Source: Escherichia coli (GTDB taxonomy: Bacteria > Pseudomonadota > Gammaproteobacteria > Enterobacterales > Enterobacteriaceae). Taken from it: 64,000 bases of DNA. A model generated the notes under the pieces. The model was not told the origin of the DNA, did no database searches, and worked only from the letters and a program-made list of their open reading frames with translations. This document shows, one piece after another, positions 4,422-31,793 of the stretch (position 1 is its first letter; each line of letters begins with the position of its first letter). The position numbers and the translations under genes were made by a program. The DNA is taken from assembly GCF_001677475.2 (NCBI RefSeq), contig NZ_CP015229.1, one strand, 5' to 3'.

Positions 4422-4494
4422 AAAAAGTTTCCTCTGTTTAGTGAGTGGATTCTGGCGGTGTTGCCGCACCGCCCCCTTTTCTGGAGGTACGATA

Positions 4495-5046
4495 ATGAAT
4501 CGCACATCCCTGATTAAATTAATTCATGTCGCCCGTCGTGATCTACAACTCGACGATGACACTTACCGCGCCTTTCTGGTGCAGTGCACAGGCAAGACCA
4601 GCTGCCGCGAGCTGTCCGTTGCACAACTGGAACGTGTGCTCGATGCCATGAAAGAGTGCGGTTTTAAAAAGCAGAAAAAACATCCCCGCCGTCGCTTTAA
4701 GGGGCATGTCACACCGCGCGAGAAGATTTATAAAATCTGGCAGCAGATGTTTCAGGATGGCTTTATCGCTGATGGCAGCGATGTCGCGCTGGACAAATAC
4801 GTTGCACGCCTGACGGCCAGACGTAATGGCGGTCAGGGGGTTTCCACGCTGGCCTGGTGTCACGGGGAATCGTTGCAGGTTGTGCTCGAAACGCTCAAGC
4901 AGTGGCACATGCGCTGCATCCGGGAAGCCTTTGCCCGACATGGTGTGCCGTTACCTGCAAGCCCATCCGGGCGGGAACTACGCGGATATGATGCACTGAC
5001 CAGTGCATATGCCCGCGCACGAAACAGCGGGAGAATTGCTGTATGA
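4495..5046 (+). CDS. gemA: GemA-like protein (Mu gp16 family)
   Basis: 183 aa; GGAGG RBS; position before mor. Confidence 0.75.
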   Translation: MNRTSLIKLIHVARRDLQLDDDTYRAFLVQCTGKTSCRELSVAQLERVLDAMKECGFKKQKKHPRRRFKGHVTPREKIYKIWQQMFQDGFIADGSDVALDKYVARLTARRNGGQGVSTLAWCHGESLQVVLETLKQWHMRCIREAFARHGVPLPASPSGRELRGYDALTSAYARARNSGRIAV

Positions 5047-5492
5047 AACAGATGAAAGAGCAGGATTTATTCGAAGACCTTCGGGACGACAGCGTTCTGG
5101 AATATCTTCATGATTACCAGGAAAACACCGCTTATCCGGCGTTACTTTCTGAACTGAACGCACTGCTGCGTAAAGAGCTGGCCCGGATTGGCGCAGACCC
5201 TGCTCATTCCCTTGAGCTGGTTGTGGCGATTTGTCGCCATATCGGCGGGATGCAGGTTTATGTTCCGAGGGGGAATATTCTGGAGAATCTTGTCCGGGAT
5301 ATGCGTATCTGGCGTGATTTTAACGGTCATAATATTCCTGAACTGGTTCAGCGTTACGGGGTGACGTATAAAACCGTCTACAAGGCCATCAAACGGATGC
5401 GACGTCTGGAGCGCAATAAATACCAGCCGGATTTGTTTTACCCCTCCCCGAACCTGCCTCACCCCGTTCGTCGTCCACCACGACGCCCTTAA
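5043..5492 (+). CDS. mor: Mor-like middle operon regulator
   Basis: 149 aa; ATG overlaps gemA stop; ...GGMQVYVPRG...YGVTYKTVYKAIKRMRRL resembles Mu Mor with longer C-terminus. Confidence 0.8.
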   Translation: MKQMKEQDLFEDLRDDSVLEYLHDYQENTAYPALLSELNALLRKELARIGADPAHSLELVVAICRHIGGMQVYVPRGNILENLVRDMRIWRDFNGHNIPELVQRYGVTYKTVYKAIKRMRRLERNKYQPDLFYPSPNLPHPVRRPPRRP

Positions 5493-5498
5493 TCAATG

Positions 5499-5522
5499 AA
5501 GCCGGTAAATCCGGCTTTTTTT
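5499..5522 (+). terminator. rho-independent terminator-like hairpin (AAGCCGG-TAAAT-CCGGCTT plus T7)
   Basis: 7-bp stem, 5-nt loop, run of 7 T; 7 nt after mor stop; identical copy at 13234-13257. Confidence 0.55.
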
Positions 5523-5577
5523 ATGCCTCCGGCACCATGAAGCAGACCACGTTTAAATCTGCTTCACAGGTGCTTTT

Positions 5578-6174
5578 ATGGAAAATCAAAAATTCTCCCC
5601 GGCCTTTGAACATGCGCTGAATTTCATTCTGCGTCCCGATATCGAAGGCGTCTATGCCAATGACCCCACTGACCGTGGCGGTGAAACCAAATACGGCATT
5701 TCTGACCGCCGCGACGGTGTGACTGACGGCAAAACCGATGTCAACGGCGACGGCAAACCGGATACCCGCATCAGGGATTTAACCCGCGAACAGGTTGCTC
5801 AGATTTACTGGCGCGATTACTGGCTGCCTGCCGGATGTGACCAGTGGCCTGATGGCGTGGCGATGTTTGTGTTCGATGCGGCGGTTCAGCATGGCGTTAA
5901 AAAAGCTATCAGGATTTTGCAGGAAGCCGCGGATGTGGATGCTGACGGCATCATCGGCCCCCGTACCCGTAAGGCCGTGAGCCTGTCCACCCCGGACTGG
6001 CTGCTGGCCCGCTGCATTGTCCGTCGTTCCCGCTTTTATGCCGACATCATCAAGTCCAAACCCGCCCAGGGCAAATACCTGAACGGCTGGTTTAACCGCA
6101 TGGAAAAGCTGACCGACGCCTGTCTGGAAATCATCGATACCCCTCCAGGCATCATGTCCGCCACGCGGGGGTGA
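5578..6174 (+). CDS. endolysin, GH108-like N-terminal domain plus peptidoglycan-binding domain
   Basis: 198 aa; motif EGVYANDPTDRGGETKYGIS typical of GH108 muramidases. Confidence 0.8.
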   Translation: MENQKFSPAFEHALNFILRPDIEGVYANDPTDRGGETKYGISDRRDGVTDGKTDVNGDGKPDTRIRDLTREQVAQIYWRDYWLPAGCDQWPDGVAMFVFDAAVQHGVKKAIRILQEAADVDADGIIGPRTRKAVSLSTPDWLLARCIVRRSRFYADIIKSKPAQGKYLNGWFNRMEKLTDACLEIIDTPPGIMSATRG

Positions 6175-6812: not shown

Positions 6813-7408
6813 CCCTTTCAGGCATCGCCTCCGTTCTGCTGAAAGCCGGGCCGGGGCTGATTCGTTCCGTCGGGCGCTGGTTTGGTGGCGGTACATCTGC
6901 CGCCGCTGACTCGGTGGCCGGTATGGTGGAAAGCGTCCGGGAAAGCCTGCCGGTGGCTGAACAGCAGCGCGTTCTGGAACAGAAGATGGCGATGTTACCA
7001 CCGGAACAACAGATACAACTGGAAACCCTGAAAATTCAGCTGCAACAACTGGAGGTGGAGCGGCAGAAGCTGGTGCTGGCTGACCAGCAGGCCGCACACC
7101 ACGAACAGCAGGAAACCATCCGCAATGGTGACAACGCCACGGACAGCTATGTGCGCCAGACGCGCCCGCTGCTGGCCCGCCTTTCCTGTTACAGCGGTCT
7201 GGCCTATGTGCTGTTGCTCTCCTGCGGCCAGATTGCCGGAGCCGTTGCCGGTGCCAGAGGTATCACGCTGCATATGCCAACACCGGACTGGGATATCACG
7301 CTGATGTTGCTTACCCCTGCGCTGGGCTATCTCGGCGTGCGAACCCTTGACGGCTTTGCCCGTTACAGCAAATCAAGCCGTCACAAAATGTCTGCGGGGC
7401 TGAAATGA
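6800..7408 (+). CDS. coiled-coil membrane protein (lysis or morphogenesis associated)
   Basis: GTG 6800 after GGAGG RBS; coiled coil QQIQLETLKIQLQQLEVERQKL and C-terminal hydrophobic segments; start uncertain. Confidence 0.45.
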   Translation: MDPLTLSGIASVLLKAGPGLIRSVGRWFGGGTSAAADSVAGMVESVRESLPVAEQQRVLEQKMAMLPPEQQIQLETLKIQLQQLEVERQKLVLADQQAAHHEQQETIRNGDNATDSYVRQTRPLLARLSCYSGLAYVLLLSCGQIAGAVAGARGITLHMPTPDWDITLMLLTPALGYLGVRTLDGFARYSKSSRHKMSAGLK

Positions 7409-7632
7409 CCGATGAAATCGACCGCATCAGTGAAGTGGTTCTGAACGAGCGTCAGTGCGTCGTTAAAGCCTGGCAGACGCGGACAAAAGAAGCGCCCCAC
7501 AGTCGGGGCTTCTGCAATGACTGCGGGAACGTTATTCCGGCACAGCGCCTTGCGGCGCTGCCGGATGTGGTGACCTGTATTGACTGCCAGCAGATGCGTG
7601 AGCGCAGGAGGAAGACATGTCCTGGGAAGTGA
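7405..7632 (+). CDS. TraR/DksA-family C4 zinc-finger protein
   Basis: 75 aa; CNDCGN...(17 aa)...CIDCQ. Confidence 0.75.
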   Translation: MTDEIDRISEVVLNERQCVVKAWQTRTKEAPHSRGFCNDCGNVIPAQRLAALPDVVTCIDCQQMRERRRKTCPGK

Positions 7633-8217: not shown

Positions 8218-8517
8218 ATGGCCCGAAAACTGAAGCCGTTAAGTCGCGGAGAACGGGCCGTCGTGCGGCAACTGGCGTACTGCCTTGTGCTGGCAGATAT
8301 TGAGCAAAACGCCATTGTCCGTGCATACGAACAACAGACCGGAAAGCCCTGGAGCCCGGATGCACCGGACAGCCCCATGAAACGCTTTCTGCGGTCATCA
8401 CCGGCATGTGCGCGGCTGTGGAAGCTGCTGGGTAAGGATATCCGGTCCGTTCGCGAAGAAATATACGCCGGTCTGAAAACACCGGGAACTGAAGACGGGG
8501 GCCGTCGTGAACCGTAA
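8218..8517 (+). CDS. hypothetical protein
   Basis: 99 aa; GAGGGG RBS. Confidence 0.5.
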   Translation: MARKLKPLSRGERAVVRQLAYCLVLADIEQNAIVRAYEQQTGKPWSPDAPDSPMKRFLRSSPACARLWKLLGKDIRSVREEIYAGLKTPGTEDGGRREP

Positions 8518-10768: not shown

Positions 10769-12336
10769 ACCAGAAACAACAGGCCGGGGCCGCACGCCGT
10801 CTGCTGAACCCGGCAACCGGTGAGGAAGACACGCTGAAAAAAGAGGCGCTCAACGAAGCACAGGCCCGTCCGCGTCAGGCTGGCGTGCGTCCGGCCTCGC
10901 CGGGCATCAGCATCGCCTCCGGGCTGAATCCCGGCAGGCTGGCAGGCATTCTGCGCAATGCCGCCAACGGTATCACGCGTGATTTTTTTATCCTTGCCGA
11001 AGAGATGGAAGAACGCGATTTGCATTACGCCTCGGTGCTGCGCACCCGCAAGCTGACGGTGGCGGGTATTGAACCGGTGGTGGTGGCTGCCAGTGATGAC
11101 GATGCCGACGTACAGCTGGCGGATGCCATACGTGCGCTGATGGAAGCCCCGCAAATCCCCGAGCTGATGTTTGATTTGCTCGACGGGCTGGGAAAAGGCG
11201 TGGCGGTCTGTGAAATTTTGTGGAACACCCGCAACAACCACTGGGTGCCCCGTGATTATGAGTGGGTTGATCCCCGTTTTCTGAAAGCCGAAAAGCCCAC
11301 TCTGCGCCGGTTCCGCCTGCTGACTGACGATGAACCGGTGGATGGCGTACCGCTGACACCGGGAAAATTCATTGTTCACCAGCCGCGTCTGAAATCCGGT
11401 CTGCCGCTGCGTAACGGTCTGGCCCGTCTGGTGGCTGTGATGTATATGCTGAAATCCTTTACCGTGCGTGACTGGTGGGCATTTGCGGAAAAATTCGGCA
11501 TTCCGGTTACGGTGGGGAAATACGGTCCCAACGCCACGGAGGAGCAAATCCGCGTGCTGATTGATGCGATTGCCTCCATTGCCTCAGATGCCGGGTGTGC
11601 CATTCCGCAGTCCATGCAACTGGAGATGCAGGAAACCGCCAGCCGGAATAACGGCGGCGCGCTGTTCCGTGAAATGGCTGAATGGTGCGATGCGCAAATC
11701 AGTAAAGCCGTACTGGGGCAGACCATGACCACAGATAATGGCAGTTCGCGTTCACAGGCGGACGTGCACAATCAGGTGCGCATGGACATTGTGCGCTGGG
11801 ACGCGCGACAGCTGGCTAACACGCTGAATGAATATCTGGTGCGTCCCTACATCGAGGCCAACTACGGGCCACAGGCGCACTATCCCCGTGTTGTTCTGCG
11901 TATCAGTGAAGCCGAAGATCTGAAGGCGCTGACTGATGCTCTGGTGCCACTGATTGACCGGGGGATGCGGGTTCAGGAATCGGAGCTGCGGGATCGGTTC
12001 GGCCTGGCGGAACCGGACGAAGGGGCTGATGTTCTGCATCCGGTGTCTGCCGGAATGTCAGGTGATATGGCGATGAACCACGAGCGCGTCGCCCTGAACC
12101 GGGAACACCCCGACGAACTGGCACAGATGGTGGATGATGCCCTGCGTGACTGGCAGAAAACCGGCGAGGCGTTCACAAACCCGGTGCTGACACTGGCGCA
12201 GGAATGCGACAGTTTTGATGACTTTCTGAAACGCCTGCCTGAGCTTCAGGAAACGCTGAACGCGGACGACTTTGCCCTGCAACTGGCGGAGGTGTGCTTT
12301 AAGGCCCGTGCGCTGGGAGACACTGGTCATGCGTGA
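10765..12336 (+). CDS. portal protein (Mu gp29 / DUF935 family)
   Basis: 523 aa; GTG start after GAGGGAGG RBS; after terminase. Confidence 0.8.
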   Translation: MNQKQQAGAARRLLNPATGEEDTLKKEALNEAQARPRQAGVRPASPGISIASGLNPGRLAGILRNAANGITRDFFILAEEMEERDLHYASVLRTRKLTVAGIEPVVVAASDDDADVQLADAIRALMEAPQIPELMFDLLDGLGKGVAVCEILWNTRNNHWVPRDYEWVDPRFLKAEKPTLRRFRLLTDDEPVDGVPLTPGKFIVHQPRLKSGLPLRNGLARLVAVMYMLKSFTVRDWWAFAEKFGIPVTVGKYGPNATEEQIRVLIDAIASIASDAGCAIPQSMQLEMQETASRNNGGALFREMAEWCDAQISKAVLGQTMTTDNGSSRSQADVHNQVRMDIVRWDARQLANTLNEYLVRPYIEANYGPQAHYPRVVLRISEAEDLKALTDALVPLIDRGMRVQESELRDRFGLAEPDEGADVLHPVSAGMSGDMAMNHERVALNREHPDELAQMVDDALRDWQKTGEAFTNPVLTLAQECDSFDDFLKRLPELQETLNADDFALQLAEVCFKARALGDTGHA

Positions 12337-13093
12337 AACCCTCATCCCGAAAGAGGCGCTGGCGTGGCTGAAGGCGAAGAAGCTGCGCCCCGGTTTTGAT
12401 TACCGGGATGTGTGGCGGGAAGAACACCGGAACAGCTTCACCGTGGCAAAAATGCTGCAACTGGATTTGTTGTCGGATGTGAAATCCCTTGTGGAAGACG
12501 CCCTGCAAAGCGGGCAGACGTTCAGCGAGTTCCGGGAGATGCTGCAACCGCTGCTGATAAAACGCGGATGGTGGGGCGTACAGGAGATGGATGATCCGCT
12601 GACGGGCGAAAGGCGCACCGTGCAACTGGGCAGCGACCGCCGCCTCCGCACGATTTTTGACACCAACATGCGCACCGCCCGCGCGGCGGGCCAGTGGGAA
12701 CGCATTCAGCGGACAAAGCGGGCCATGCCGTATCTGATTTATGAGCTGGGGCCATCCCGCGAGCACCGGGCGGAGCATGTGAAATGGGCGCGTCTGTGTC
12801 TGCCTGTAGACCACCCGTTCTGGCAGACGCATTTCGCCCCTAACGGCTGGGGCTGCAAATGCACCATCCGTCAGGTCAGCCGTGGTGAGTATGCGCAACT
12901 GGCGGCACAGGGCACCATTCACACCGAAGCGCCGGAAATCAGGACTGTCCGCTGGGTGAACAAACGTACGGGCGAAGAGGAAGAGGTGCCGGAAGGGATT
13001 GATCCGGGCTGGAACTACAATCCCGGTATAAACCGTGAGCAGGAGCTGGCGCGCCAGCTGGCGACAAAACAGGCCCGTTTTGACAGTGAGTAA
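12329..13093 (+). CDS. head morphogenesis protein (Mu F family)
   Basis: 254 aa from ATG 12329; after portal. Confidence 0.8.
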   Translation: MRETLIPKEALAWLKAKKLRPGFDYRDVWREEHRNSFTVAKMLQLDLLSDVKSLVEDALQSGQTFSEFREMLQPLLIKRGWWGVQEMDDPLTGERRTVQLGSDRRLRTIFDTNMRTARAAGQWERIQRTKRAMPYLIYELGPSREHRAEHVKWARLCLPVDHPFWQTHFAPNGWGCKCTIRQVSRGEYAQLAAQGTIHTEAPEIRTVRWVNKRTGEEEEVPEGIDPGWNYNPGINREQELARQLATKQARFDSE

Positions 13094-13115
13094 CCCTCCC
13101 GCCGTAAATCCCCCT

Positions 13116-13141
13116 GAAACGCATCAGAAACGCGTTTTTTA
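13116..13141 (+). terminator. terminator-like hairpin after F
   Basis: GAAACGC...GCGTTTT stem followed by T-run, 23 nt after F stop. Confidence 0.4.
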
Positions 13142-13168
13142 TTCTGATGGCGTGAATGTGCATTCTGA

Positions 13169-13210
13169 CGTTTTTGAAGATGCTGTGGCGTTTTTGAAGG
13201 GGTTTTGAAG
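13169..13210. repeat. three direct repeats of CGTTTTTGAAG-like motif
   Basis: Copies at 13169, 13189, 13202 between F and I. Confidence 0.4.
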
Positions 13211-13231
13211 GGGGTATTTCCCCGTTTTCAG

Positions 13232-13257
13232 TGAAGCCGGTAAATCCGGCTTTTTTT
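13232..13257 (+). terminator. second identical copy of the 26-bp hairpin plus T7 element
   Basis: TGAAGCCGGTAAATCCGGCTTTTTTT identical to 5497-5522; 50 nt upstream of I start. Confidence 0.55.
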
Positions 13258-13306
13258 CTGCCTTCCGCATACTGACCGTCGGTAACCCCAGACGACGGAG
13301 ACTGAC

Positions 13307-14263
13307 ATGCAACCGGAACTGCTGGCGCTGTGTTTTTCCCTGCCAGAACCCATCCCTGAGCTGACACCTGCTCAACTGCCGGAATGGCTCGAACTTGTCC
13401 CTGCGGGTGAGTTCACCGGGCGCGATGGCCGGACGTGGATTAACCGCAATCCGCATGAGGTGGTTGCCCGTTCGTCCGGCATCAAAATTCCGGTGGATAT
13501 TGAACACGCCACCGAAATTAAAGGCCCGCGTGGTGAAGATGCTCCGGCGTATGGCTGGGTGGAAGAACTGCGGGTGACGGACAGCAGCACCATTGAAGGG
13601 CGTGTTGTCTGGAGCGAGTCCGCCCGCTGGATGCTGAGCGAGCGCCGCTACCGCTATTACAGCCCGGCGTTTTTCTTTGACGCGGAAGGCGTAGTGACGC
13701 GCCTGTCCAGCGTCGGGCTGACCAACAAACCTAACCTGGATTTTCCTGCACTGAATACGGAGAAAAACCTGATGACAGTACCTGTGCAAATCACCGGCCT
13801 GCTTGGGCTGGCTGAATCTGCCACGGTGGACGATACCGTGGCCGCCATTAAACAACTTCAGGAGAACGAACAGGTGGCGCTGAACCGCGCACAGACACCT
13901 GATCTGACGAAGTTTGTGCCGGTGGAAACCCACAATCTGGCCCTGAACCGTGCCGAAACCGCAGAACAACGCCTTCAGCAACTTGAAGAGAAGGAAGCAG
14001 AAGCGCTTGTGGATGCGGCCATCGAAGCCGGAAAAGTGGCCCCGGCAAACCGTGACATGTTCCTTGCCACCTGCCGCACGGAAGAAGGCCGCAAACAGTT
14101 TGCGGAGTACACCAGAGGCGCACAGCCGCTGGTGAACAACGACAAGCCCAGCCAGGGCAAGGATAAACCCGCGCAGACACTGACCGACACCGAACTGGCG
14201 ATGTGCCGCAGCATGGGTATTACCGGGGAAGAGTTCCTCGCCGCTAAACCGAAACAGGAGTAA
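13307..14263 (+). CDS. head protease/scaffold protein (Mu I family)
   Basis: 318 aa; GGAG RBS; between F and major head gene. Confidence 0.8.
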   Translation: MQPELLALCFSLPEPIPELTPAQLPEWLELVPAGEFTGRDGRTWINRNPHEVVARSSGIKIPVDIEHATEIKGPRGEDAPAYGWVEELRVTDSSTIEGRVVWSESARWMLSERRYRYYSPAFFFDAEGVVTRLSSVGLTNKPNLDFPALNTEKNLMTVPVQITGLLGLAESATVDDTVAAIKQLQENEQVALNRAQTPDLTKFVPVETHNLALNRAETAEQRLQQLEEKEAEALVDAAIEAGKVAPANRDMFLATCRTEEGRKQFAEYTRGAQPLVNNDKPSQGKDKPAQTLTDTELAMCRSMGITGEEFLAAKPKQE

Positions 14264-15176: not shown

Positions 15177-15210
15177 CCCGTCATCCGTAATCTGTAACCC
15201 GCAGTTAAAA

Positions 15211-15250
15211 GGCGCTGCGAATGCCCTTTTAACTGCCTTTTAAAAGGCAG
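15211..15250 (+). terminator. hairpin attenuator/terminator after major head gene
   Basis: 11-bp perfect stem CAGTTAAAAGG/CCTTTTAACTG then CTGCCTTTTAAAAGGCAG palindrome. Confidence 0.4.
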
Positions 15251-15254
15251 AGTC

Positions 15255-23858: not shown

Positions 23859-24385
23859 ACGCCATTGCCCGCCGTCTGCGACTGATGGTTGACCGTGCCA
23901 TTGTCCGCATGGTGTCTGACAGTCTGGAGCGGCAGAACCTGCAAATCCAGACGCTGGCAGATGCCACCGACGACGACGTGGAACGCTTCCAGAACTACGG
24001 TTTTACATCCGTGCCGCCGGAAGGTTCTGAAGCCATAGTGCTGGCCGTTAGCGGGCGGCGTGACGGGCTGGTTGCCATCGCGGTGGAGGACAAGCGATGT
24101 CGCCCGAAAGGGCTGTCCCCCGGCGACGTCCGGCTGTATCACCAGGACGGCAAATCACATATCACGTTAAGGAAAGGCGGAATTATTGAAATCACAGGGG
24201 AACAATTAAACGTTTCAGGGAAAACGGTAAATCTCACCGCCGACGAATTACTGGCTATAAATGCAGGAAATATGAAATTCGTCGGTCCCTGTGAGTTTAC
24301 TGAAGATGTCAGAATCAACGGCAAATCTTTCAGCGAACACATTCATAAGGACGGCGACAATGAGAATACATCACCGCCCGTATGA
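23849..24385 (+). CDS. baseplate spike protein (gpV-like)
   Basis: 178 aa. Confidence 0.65.
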   Translation: MGLNAIARRLRLMVDRAIVRMVSDSLERQNLQIQTLADATDDDVERFQNYGFTSVPPEGSEAIVLAVSGRRDGLVAIAVEDKRCRPKGLSPGDVRLYHQDGKSHITLRKGGIIEITGEQLNVSGKTVNLTADELLAINAGNMKFVGPCEFTEDVRINGKSFSEHIHKDGDNENTSPPV

Positions 24386-30839: not shown

Positions 30840-30863
30840 GTCATCATTTTGTATAGTTTATAA

Positions 30864-30887
30864 CGATCGATACAATCGTATCGATCG
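30864..30887. promoter_or_regulatory. palindrome with two GATC sites upstream of com-mom (candidate Dam-sensitive operator)
   Basis: CGATCGATA-CAATCG-TATCGATCG, perfect 9-bp inverted repeat, GATC at 30865 and 30883. Confidence 0.5.
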
Positions 30888-30961
30888 TCAGTTTGCATCA
30901 TCTGTGATTAAATACCCTGGCCCTCAGGGCTATCGTATCTGGTTAATACACAGGTGGGATC

Positions 30962-31147
30962 ATGGATGCTGTTCGTTGTAAAAACTGCAATAAATTGCTG
31001 TTTAAAGGAAGTTTTAAGCATATAGAAATCAAATGCCCTCGTTGTAAACGTTACATTGTCATGTCGAGTGCCCGGGAGCATCCCACGGAGCTGTATTGTG
31101 GGAAAAGAGAAGAAATCACGCATCCTTACAAAACCCTGCGTTATTGA
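30962..31147 (+). CDS. com: Com zinc-finger translational activator of mom
   Basis: 61 aa; [33 protein letters not shown]...THPYKTLRY closely resembles Mu Com. Confidence 0.85.
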
Positions 31148-31793
31148 GTATGAAGGCCGTATTGTCGGCTATGGTTCAAGGGAACTGCGCGTTGAAACCA
31201 TATCCTGCTGGCTGGCCCGCACAATCATTCAGACAAAGCACTATTCCCGCCGTTTTGTGAATAACTCCTGGTTGCATCTGGGGGTATTCAGCGGACGTGA
31301 TCTGGTTGGCGTTCTCCAGTGGGGATACGCCCTTAATCCCAACTCAGGGCGTCGGGTCGTGCTGGAAACGGATAACCGGGGCTATATGGAACTGAACCGC
31401 ATGTGGTTACACGACGACATGCCCCGCAACTCTGAATCACGGGCTATCAGCTACGCACTGAAAACCATCAGGTTACTGTATCCATCAGTGGAGTGGGTTC
31501 AGTCCTTTGCAGACGAACGCTGCGGACGTGCAGGTGTTGTGTATCAGGCATCTAATTTTGATTTTATTGGTAGCCATGAAAGCACGTTCTACGAGCTGGA
31601 CGGCGAGTGGTATCACGAGATAACGATGAACGCGATTAAGCGTGGAGGACAACGAGGCGAGTATTTGCGGGCTAATAAGGAGCGGGCGGTGGTACACAAA
31701 TTTAATCAGTATCGCTACATCAGATTCCTGAACAAGCGCGCAAAAAAGCGACTAAATACTAAGCTATTCAGGATTCAGCCATACCCGAAGTGA
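31098..31793 (+). CDS. mom: Mom DNA adenine modification protein
   Basis: No in-frame ATG near 5' end; GTG 31098 (GGAG 9 nt upstream) gives 231 aa; overlaps com by 50 nt. Confidence 0.8.

Follow-up and report, generated by a model that had tools for sequence, protein, structure and literature searches.

In the textbook cascade of bacteriophage Mu, Mor turns on C, and C in turn turns on the late genes. Specifically, Mu transcribes its lysis and head operons from two promoters that depend on C, Plys and PI, and Pm, the middle promoter that Mor activates, is present once and serves a short operon of middle genes with C at its end. The Mor site at Pm is a 16-bp imperfect dyad that spans -51 to -36 with its centre at -43.5 and is built from two 5-bp repeats flanking a GC-rich hexanucleotide; the Mor footprint extends from -56 to -33, the promoter has a -10 hexamer and no -35, and the bases named in addition are -57G, -56T and the AAA of -55 to -53 (PMC4390567, PMC4287176). 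A 2025 cryo-EM preprint describes Mor/C as bound in the form of a tetramer, with the exact contacts still under revision. The GenBank record of Mu gives the sequence after mor two annotations, one for Pm as a middle promoter activated by Mor and one for a predicted terminator. This terminator, which overlaps Pm, goes by the name t9.2 in older literature.

Two other described systems are close to the locus at the level of RNA folding. In the fold-back inhibition of IS10/Tn10, upstream sequence that is present in read-through RNA alone pairs with the translation start region, which shields the transposase from outside promoters and plays no part in the timing of phage late genes. In phage T4, long transcripts of gene e hide the Shine-Dalgarno (SD) sequence or the AUG in a helix whose 5' strand contains the late promoter and is therefore missing from late transcripts, and the same arrangement of a promoter within a hairpin at the ribosome-binding site (RBS) is found at soc, 49 and I-TevI (PMC3014915).

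The locus described here lies in a stretch of Escherichia coli DNA of 64,000 nucleotides, hereafter the window, in which a 26-bp sequence occurs twice within a Mu-like prophage. The analysis indicates that each copy quite probably makes up the upstream half of a Mu Pm-type promoter that depends on Mor, combined with an intrinsic terminator, in a phage whose late genes would be run by a two-tier cascade with Mor as the only activator.

Results

The surroundings of the 26-mer copies are those of a Mu-like prophage according to Pfam. MuB (319-1278), GemA (4441-5046) and Gam were identified, together with a mor orthologue upstream of copy 1 (5043..5492, + strand; PF08765, E 3.6e-30) and a GH108 endolysin gene (5578..6174, + strand; PF05838 and PF09374), which is the first gene of the operon after site 1. 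A Mu F-like gene (12272-13093) stands upstream of copy 2, and the first gene after site 2 encodes a Mu-type head protease I (13307..14263, + strand; PF10123), in agreement with the flanking genes proposed in the initial annotation. Further Mu-like genes recognized by Pfam encode the terminase, the portal, capsid protein T, tail and baseplate proteins and com-mom. The lysis/packaging operon also contains, at 7405-7632, the gene of a DksA/TraR-type C4 zinc-finger protein of 75 amino acids, which could modulate late transcription because such proteins bind RNA polymerase.

The 26-mer (TGAAGCCGGTAAATCCGGCTTTTTTT) has exactly two copies on the + strand, at 5497-5522 and 13232-13257, and the exact duplication reported in the initial annotation is indeed a pair with 100% identity. 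No third copy was found in the window at up to three mismatches, none arose in 100 shuffles, and the chance expectation is 0. The similarity of the two places extends over 49 nt at 86% (5486-5534 versus 13221-13269), and the predicted promoters of sites 1 and 2 agree at 45 of 61 positions from -60 to +1. Both copies fold into the same hairpin, hairpin-1, with an 8-bp stem and a 5-nt loop followed by a run of seven T (T7), at -12.6 kcal/mol and a z of -3.6. At site 1, the hairpin and its T-run occupy 5498..5522 on the + strand (stem 5498-5505 with 5511-5518, loop TAAAT, T7 5516-5522), which corresponds to promoter positions -48 to -24; the terminator-like counterpart at site 2 occupies 13233..13257 on the + strand (T7 13251-13257). 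A terminator scan lists both copies, and both have the form of an intrinsic (Rho-independent) terminator, a GC-rich stem-loop with U7 at the end of a transcription unit. Hairpin-1 of copy 1 begins 6 nt past the mor stop codon, and that of copy 2 lies about 140 nt past the F stop codon, within the 213-nt gap between F and I.

The F-I gap contains further structure. Two more terminator-like hairpins stand ahead of copy 2 within 13100-13225, the one directly after F formed by AAACGC..GCGTTTTTT (with the alternative pairing CATCAGAA..TTCTGATG) and the second by GGGGGTATTTCCCC, which is followed by GTTTTC; with copy 2 included, three hairpins are thus stacked at the end of the lys-to-F operon. The gap also carries three copies of GTTTT(T)GAAG, at 13170-13179, 13190-13199 and 13202-13210. 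Relatives have TTTTAAAC three times at this position, Mu has TTTTTAAA-type repeats round its annotated gyrase cut site (AF083977 17879), and the repeats of the window (13170-13210) may be the equivalent of the central strong gyrase site of Mu. Nested hairpins in the gap after the major capsid gene T, at 15177-15254 (CAGTTAAAAGGC..GCCTTTTAACTG and CTGCCTTTTAAAAGGCAG), look like the usual attenuator after a capsid gene.

The 26-mer matches Mu Pm (TAAAGCCGGTTAATCCGGCTTTTTTT), which lies directly 3' of mor in Mu, and the Mu DNA immediately past mor (CAGTAAAGCCGGTTAATCCGGCTTTTTTTACGTCCTCAATATCCTG) is nearly the window sequence. The Mor element of Mu was mapped from the positions quoted in later papers and from the GenBank Pm feature, which ends at +10 and therefore makes AF083977 position 9224 the Mu +1. 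By this mapping, the Mu element corresponds to AGTAAAGCCGGTTAAT (AGTAA-AGCCGG-TTAAT), with TATCCT as the -10. Base for base, the window copies can be aligned with Mu Pm: the Mor element comprises the four bases ahead of the hairpin, the left arm and the loop (A-TGA AGCCGG TAAAT in the window), and the right arm and T-run occupy the promoter spacer (-35 to -24). The Mor-type element of site 1, AATGAAGCCGGTAAAT (5495..5510, + strand; predicted -51 to -36), is identical to that of Mu at 13 of 16 positions, and that of site 2, AGTGAAGCCGGTAAAT (13230..13245, + strand), at 14 of 16.

The predicted -10 hexamers, CACCAT at site 1 (5533..5538, + strand) and CATACT at site 2 (13268..13273, + strand), each lie 22 nt past the 16-bp element, at the same offset as TATCCT in Mu. 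The similar stretches that had been seen downstream of the two copies are therefore present, and they correspond to the putative promoter spacer and -10 hexamer at the spacing of Mu. Transcription is predicted by homology with Mu to start at about 5546 and 13281, and at about 24268 for the third site described below. CACCAT is a weak hexamer that matches TATAAT at 3 of 6 positions, and relatives have CAnnAT-type hexamers there; the -35 region, CCGGCT, matches TTGACA at only 2 of 6 positions, so there is no -35 hexamer.

Sites 1 and 2 thus share with Mu Pm the Mor element, an identical GC stem and T7, the element-to--10 spacing, the lack of a -35 and an orthologous activator, and copy 1 shares its position after mor. 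They differ in the loop, which is TAAAT in the window and TTAAT in Mu, and in their number and use: whereas Mu has one copy, three copies here would drive the lysis/packaging, head/tail and baseplate genes directly, and C is absent. Judged from this alignment, the 26-mer is a homologue of Mu Pm with its Mor site and overlapping terminator, and as the homologue of an experimentally defined Mu element it is therefore not categorically new. The exact duplication, which had seemed odd for a terminator, would follow from the sequence-specific constraint that an activator site imposes.

The third site became apparent both in a search with the 16-mer and in a PWM scan, in which sites 1, 2 and 3 score 33.8, 33.1 and 31.0 bits and the next best match on the + strand 13.3. 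Its Mor-type element, AGGGAAAACGGTAAAT (24217..24232, + strand), lies inside the gp45 (Q) baseplate gene, and the predicted -10, TATAAA (24256..24261, + strand), keeps the 22-nt spacing; relatives have TATTAT, ATTAAT or ATAAAT at this place. Both the element and the AT-rich hexamer are kept in gp45 homologues down to about 60% amino acid identity. Third-codon-position entropy is 0.36 over the element versus a gene mean of 1.02, and codon 24224, which encodes different amino acids among the homologues (A, K, R, S, T), has an invariant third base, the G of CGGT. Site 3 is without a terminator hairpin, which suggests that the activator function is separable from the terminator function. A 10-bp perfect inverted repeat, CCGACGAATT / AATTCGTCGG (24240..24285, + strand; -14.9 kcal/mol, z -2.5), encloses the predicted -10 and start, and one relative has compensatory CCAGCGA / TCGCTGG there, with non-synonymous changes. 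A further candidate at 8229 (ACTGAAGCCGTTAAGT) was rejected, with a PWM score of 7.6 and no -10 at the right spacing.

The short inverted repeats that had been noticed ahead of each RBS also exist, and they form a covarying hairpin, hairpin-2, that straddles the predicted start site. At site 1, hairpin-2 spans 5528..5582 on the + strand (-21.8 kcal/mol, z -4.6). Its outer stem pairs GGCACC (5531-5536), which overlaps the -10, with GGTGCT (5569-5574), which covers the SD sequence AGGTG (5568-5572), and its inner stem pairs GAAGCAGA with UCUGCUUC (5538-5546 with 5558-5566); the leader from the predicted +1 reaches just -5.7 kcal/mol (z -0.5). At site 2, hairpin-2 (13267..13310, + strand) is weak in the window (-11.6 kcal/mol, z -1.6). 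Here CCGTCG (13276-13281) pairs with CGACGG (13293-13298), which overlaps the SD sequence GGAG (13297-13300), and an outer pairing joins GCAT (13267-13270) to ATGC (13307-13310) at the start codon; the leader from the predicted +1 folds at -1.8 kcal/mol. In relatives, hairpin-2 of the I site covaries, as the pair counts over 43 I-site sequences given below show, and G-U pairs are tolerated.

At the lys site, the inner stems of relatives are of many unrelated sequences with the structure conserved, and the leaders were folded one by one because these stems are too different in length and sequence for one alignment. Over 58 distinct lys leaders, the mean folding energy is -18.1 kcal/mol for the read-through form (mean z -3.1) versus -4.9 kcal/mol from the predicted +1. 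In 74% of them at least three SD bases are paired with bases upstream of +1, and one leader has the paired change GGAAT/GGTTCC. In the minimum-energy folds, the long and the short forms have the same share of their SD bases paired, 0.69, so that the proposed lock rests on the energies and on the identity of the pairing partner. In Mu, whose starts are mapped, both Pm and PI have +1 at the 3' edge of the left hairpin arm. With the 5' arm of hairpin-2 placed upstream of where transcription is predicted to begin, the RBS should be hidden in read-through RNA only.

This arrangement resembles that of T4 gene e in that the protected gene encodes an endolysin and the SD sequence or AUG lies in a helix of the longer transcript, here in silico. 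It differs in the promoter, which is a gp55 late promoter in T4 and, by homology, a sigma-70 promoter dependent on the Mor activator here, and in the terminator stacked directly upstream; the effect of the lock is a prediction for the window. The repeats might, however, form no translational lock at all and instead act on the DNA level in promoter melting, stabilise the 5' end of the late mRNA or serve as RNase processing sites, an explanation that we consider unlikely while giving it real weight. A true start a few bases upstream of those placed by homology would allow a stabiliser role, and the site 3 repeat, which encloses a -10 in a coding region with no RBS nearby, as well as Mu Plys, where both arms lie upstream of +1, indicate that one RBS-hiding model is insufficient for all sites. 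The pairing of the SD sequence with the -10 region by the lys outer stem, which holds across the same 74% of distinct leaders and includes the GGAAT/GGTTCC change, argues for a lock nonetheless, as do the tolerated G-U pairs, which favour RNA, and the likeness to a T4 arrangement that also precedes an endolysin.

The activator that would act at these sites is a Mor orthologue. The window Mor is 63% identical to Mu Mor and 32% identical to Mu C, and its C-terminal helix-turn-helix is near-identical to that of Mu Mor (TVYKAIKRMRR versus TVYKAIRRMRR). A tblastn search of the 64-kb window with Mu Mor, Mu C and the window Mor revealed no second gene of the Mor/C family; the Mu C query matched the mor gene only and thus found no gene for a C activator, and no other activator family was detected in the late region. 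The sites before the lysis gene and before I occupy the genomic positions of Mu Plys and PI, with a terminator just upstream as in Mu, whereas the upstream sequences of the two Mu promoters differ from those of the window. Upstream of the -35 region, where the C-type recognition sequence was looked for at the window sites, a Mor-type element stands in place of the C box, as would be expected in a phage without a C gene.

Downstream of this element, site 2 is close to Mu PI: TTCCGCATACTGAC matches the Mu PI -10 region, TCCCGCAAACTGAC, at 12 of 14 positions, and the downstream hairpin is homologous to the CTGCTCA..TGAGCAG of PI. The head promoter therefore looks like PI with a Mor-type site in place of the C-type site. 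The endolysins differ as well, that of the window belonging to GH108 and that of Mu being a SAR muramidase.

C homologues were seen only in true Mu/D108-like genomes, which keep a single Pm, and in some Yersinia phages with C, Pm still lies ahead of a GH108 homologue. One example is Yersinia phage vB_YpM_5 (13112-15040), a C phage in which a GH108 homologue comes first after Pm and a SAR endolysin follows Plys. Mu itself lost the GH108 gene, and its middle operon starts with E18, homologues of which come after GH108 in all Mor-only relatives.

The com-mom operon of the window (30840-31793) has its com start at 30962 and Mom (PF25680) at 31056-31793, with GATC sites ahead of it at 30865, 30883 and 30958. 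Whereas mom needs C in Mu, the window phage has com-mom without C. The PWM scan of the window found no Mor-type site before com-mom or before gene P, and with none before com-mom, Mor may not be the sole late regulator.

A separate reading is that the 16-mer is bound by a factor other than Mor, from the phage or the host, or activates by a mechanism unlike that of Mu Pm, which we regard as improbable. The late region encodes the DksA/TraR-type protein (7405-7632) and several proteins without a family match, and the tetramer of the cryo-EM preprint leaves the exact contacts of Mor/C under revision. In sequence, in spacing and in lying after mor, however, the element corresponds to the site on which Mor leaves its footprint in Mu, and the recognition helix of the window Mor is almost unchanged, with no other DNA-binding activator family detected beside it.

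The comparison with relatives separates the activator half of the element from its terminator half. A pattern scan of viral contigs gave about 90 matches with the loop TAAAT or TTAAT, all adjoining Mu-like genes; the pattern required the hairpin, and loci were therefore also gathered by protein homology alone. The initial annotation had suggested a search for the 26-mer in other Mu-like prophages, and the version with the T[A/T]AAT loop is found there at fixed positions. At the lys site, the exact sequence AAGCCGGTWAATCCGGCTTTTTT, that is, AAGCCGGT[A/T]AATCCGGCTTTTTT, lies upstream of the gene in 78 of 80 loci chosen by homology to the GH108 endolysin, at 58-98% amino acid identity.

At the I site, 78 of 80 loci collected through homology to protease I have a related 16-mer upstream of the gene, 22-23 nt ahead of a CAnACT-type hexamer. 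The right arm and T-run are exact in the group of the window and in a few diverged phages. Elsewhere the stem is kept by compensation (AAGGCGG/CCGCCTT, AAACCGG/CCGGTTT, AAAGCGG/CCGCTTT), and in other lineages the right arm and T-run are absent (…GGTTAATCCACCTGAG…). Over 43 distinct I-site sequences, 81% of cells are paired versus 27-49% with slid partners, and 44 cells are double changes versus 23 in shuffles (0/500).

The variation of the I sites in the right arm and T-run therefore makes the activator half universal and the terminator half optional. As judged from these pair counts, hairpin-1 at I sites is selected as a structure in many lineages and yet dispensable, which fits a terminator of greatest importance where early genes give way to late ones, ahead of the endolysin, and of less importance between one late operon and the next. 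The same 26-mer is present at both sites in 20 of the 64 contigs that have both. In 52 of these 64, the phage has the same loop variant (TAAAT or TTAAT) at both of its sites, a number that we discount as evidence because shared ancestry confounds it. Upstream of its GH108 gene, IMGVR_UViG_2531839192_000008 carries a partial tandem duplication of the Pm module (…GCCGGTTAATCCGGGAATCCGGCTTTTTTTACGCCCTCAATGCCGGTTAATCCGGCTTTTTTT…), which suggests that slippage or recombination can occur at the hairpin.

Do the two copies, then, constitute intrinsic terminators only, one efficient copy having spread by recombination to two operon ends while the late transcripts start elsewhere? The canonical hairpin and T7 after stop codons are compatible with this, and the covariation of the I-site stem signals selection on pairing. 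In two Bacteroidota genomes (Adhaeribacter and a Flavobacteriia MAG), moreover, the exact 24-mer GAAGCCGGTTAATCCGGCTTTTTT is present with no Mu-like gene in its neighbourhood and is apparently an independent plain terminator. A plain stem may drift, however, whereas the lys-site hairpin is identical in 78 of 80 relatives whose adjacent protein has diverged to about 60%, and the left arm and loop of the I site persist where the right arm and T-run are gone. A third 16-mer inside a gene and without a hairpin, a -10 hexamer at a fixed 22-nt spacing and the experimentally defined promoter at the homologous Mu sequence make a role in termination only very improbable.

Outside the window, the 24-mer occurs in 16 stretches among 100,044 species representatives. 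Fourteen of them lie in Mu-like prophages, all from Enterobacterales (Serratia, Brenneria, Raoultella, Klebsiella, Kluyvera, Trabulsiella and Pluralibacter). A host terminator in the map-glnD intergenic region of E. coli CFT073, AATGAAGCCGGCGAATGCCGGCTTTTTTAATGC, resembles the 26-mer even in its flanks; this terminator, which 731 E. coli genomes carry, differs in the stem extension and the loop and is without GGTWAAT. In Rfam, the terminator shape matched only sroD, below threshold (22 bits, where the gathering score is 50).

The idea of a generic dispersed repeat, either REP/BIME-like or a miniature mobile element, that landed in the prophage by chance is scarcely credible even with host look-alikes that match at 88% in 731 E. 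coli genomes, since these matches are the map-glnD terminator (AAGCCGGCGAATGCCGGCTTTTTT), with another stem and loop and one copy per genome, the exact 34-mer is present in just 45 of 5426 complete E. coli genomes, and 14 of the 16 stretches among species representatives are in Mu-like prophages. A dispersed repeat of the REP, BIME or MITE kind was rejected accordingly, given two exact copies in the window, matches in viral contigs that always lie beside Mu-like genes and a host look-alike of different sequence. The widespread generic repeat that the initial annotation had kept in view thus gives way to a T[A/T]AAT-loop version tied to Mu-like prophages.

Discussion

The data presented here are compatible with a model in which phage Mor would bind, by homology with Mu Pm, the 16-bp imperfect-dyad element at -51 to -36 and bring sigma-70 RNA polymerase to the weak -10 hexamer that follows after 22 nt, with no -35 element. 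RNA arriving from upstream would fold into GAAGCCGG-UAAAU-CCGGCUUU followed by U7 and thereby stop transcription, so that copy 1 would end the early operon and copy 2 the lys-to-F operon. The third Mor-type site, in gp45, would serve the baseplate and fibre genes. As such, the cascade would have two tiers, from the early genes to Mor and from Mor to all late genes, versus three tiers in Mu.

The model also assigns a role to hairpin-2, the 5' arm of which would overlap the -10 and discriminator while its 3' arm would lie at the Shine-Dalgarno sequence or start codon. RNA that leaks past the terminator would carry the whole of hairpin-2 and be poorly translated, whereas RNA begun at the promoter that Mor activates would be free of the 5' arm and accessible. 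The initial annotation had considered a terminator joined either to the site of a late promoter or activator or to a hairpin for translational control, and all three find support here, with function deduced from homology and conservation.

Tentatively, and at somewhat less than an even chance, a large group of related Mu-like prophages in enterobacteria may run all late genes from Mor via three composite modules of about 90 nt, with the Mor-then-C cascade of Mu as the derived form. Each proposed module would combine a terminator for the operon upstream with an activator site, a promoter that has no -35 and a hairpin divided by the start site, and its -10/discriminator would double as an anti-Shine-Dalgarno sequence, with translation limited to RNA that starts at the promoter; the derived state of Mu would reflect the replacement of Mor-type sites by C-type sites at homologous promoters. 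In the literature searched, the use of several copies as late promoters in C-less Mu-like prophages appears to be undescribed, and the same appears to hold for the independence of the activator half from the terminator half among relatives and for a conserved hairpin split by the start site.

These findings have implications for the annotation and the biology of Mu-like phages. The 16-mer with a -10 hexamer 22 nt later offers a simple annotation marker for the starts of late operons in Mu-like prophages of Enterobacterales. The relatives, in turn, constitute a natural series of sites for defining the requirements of Mor, some with the terminator half, some without it and one in coding sequence. 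A terminator and a translational lock combined before the endolysin gene could plausibly guard twice over against premature lysis, in a manner similar to that of T4 gene e and of unrelated origin. Taken together, the textbook cascade from Mor to C to the late genes is perhaps no general rule, as many relatives of Mu appear to rely on Mor alone at their late promoters.
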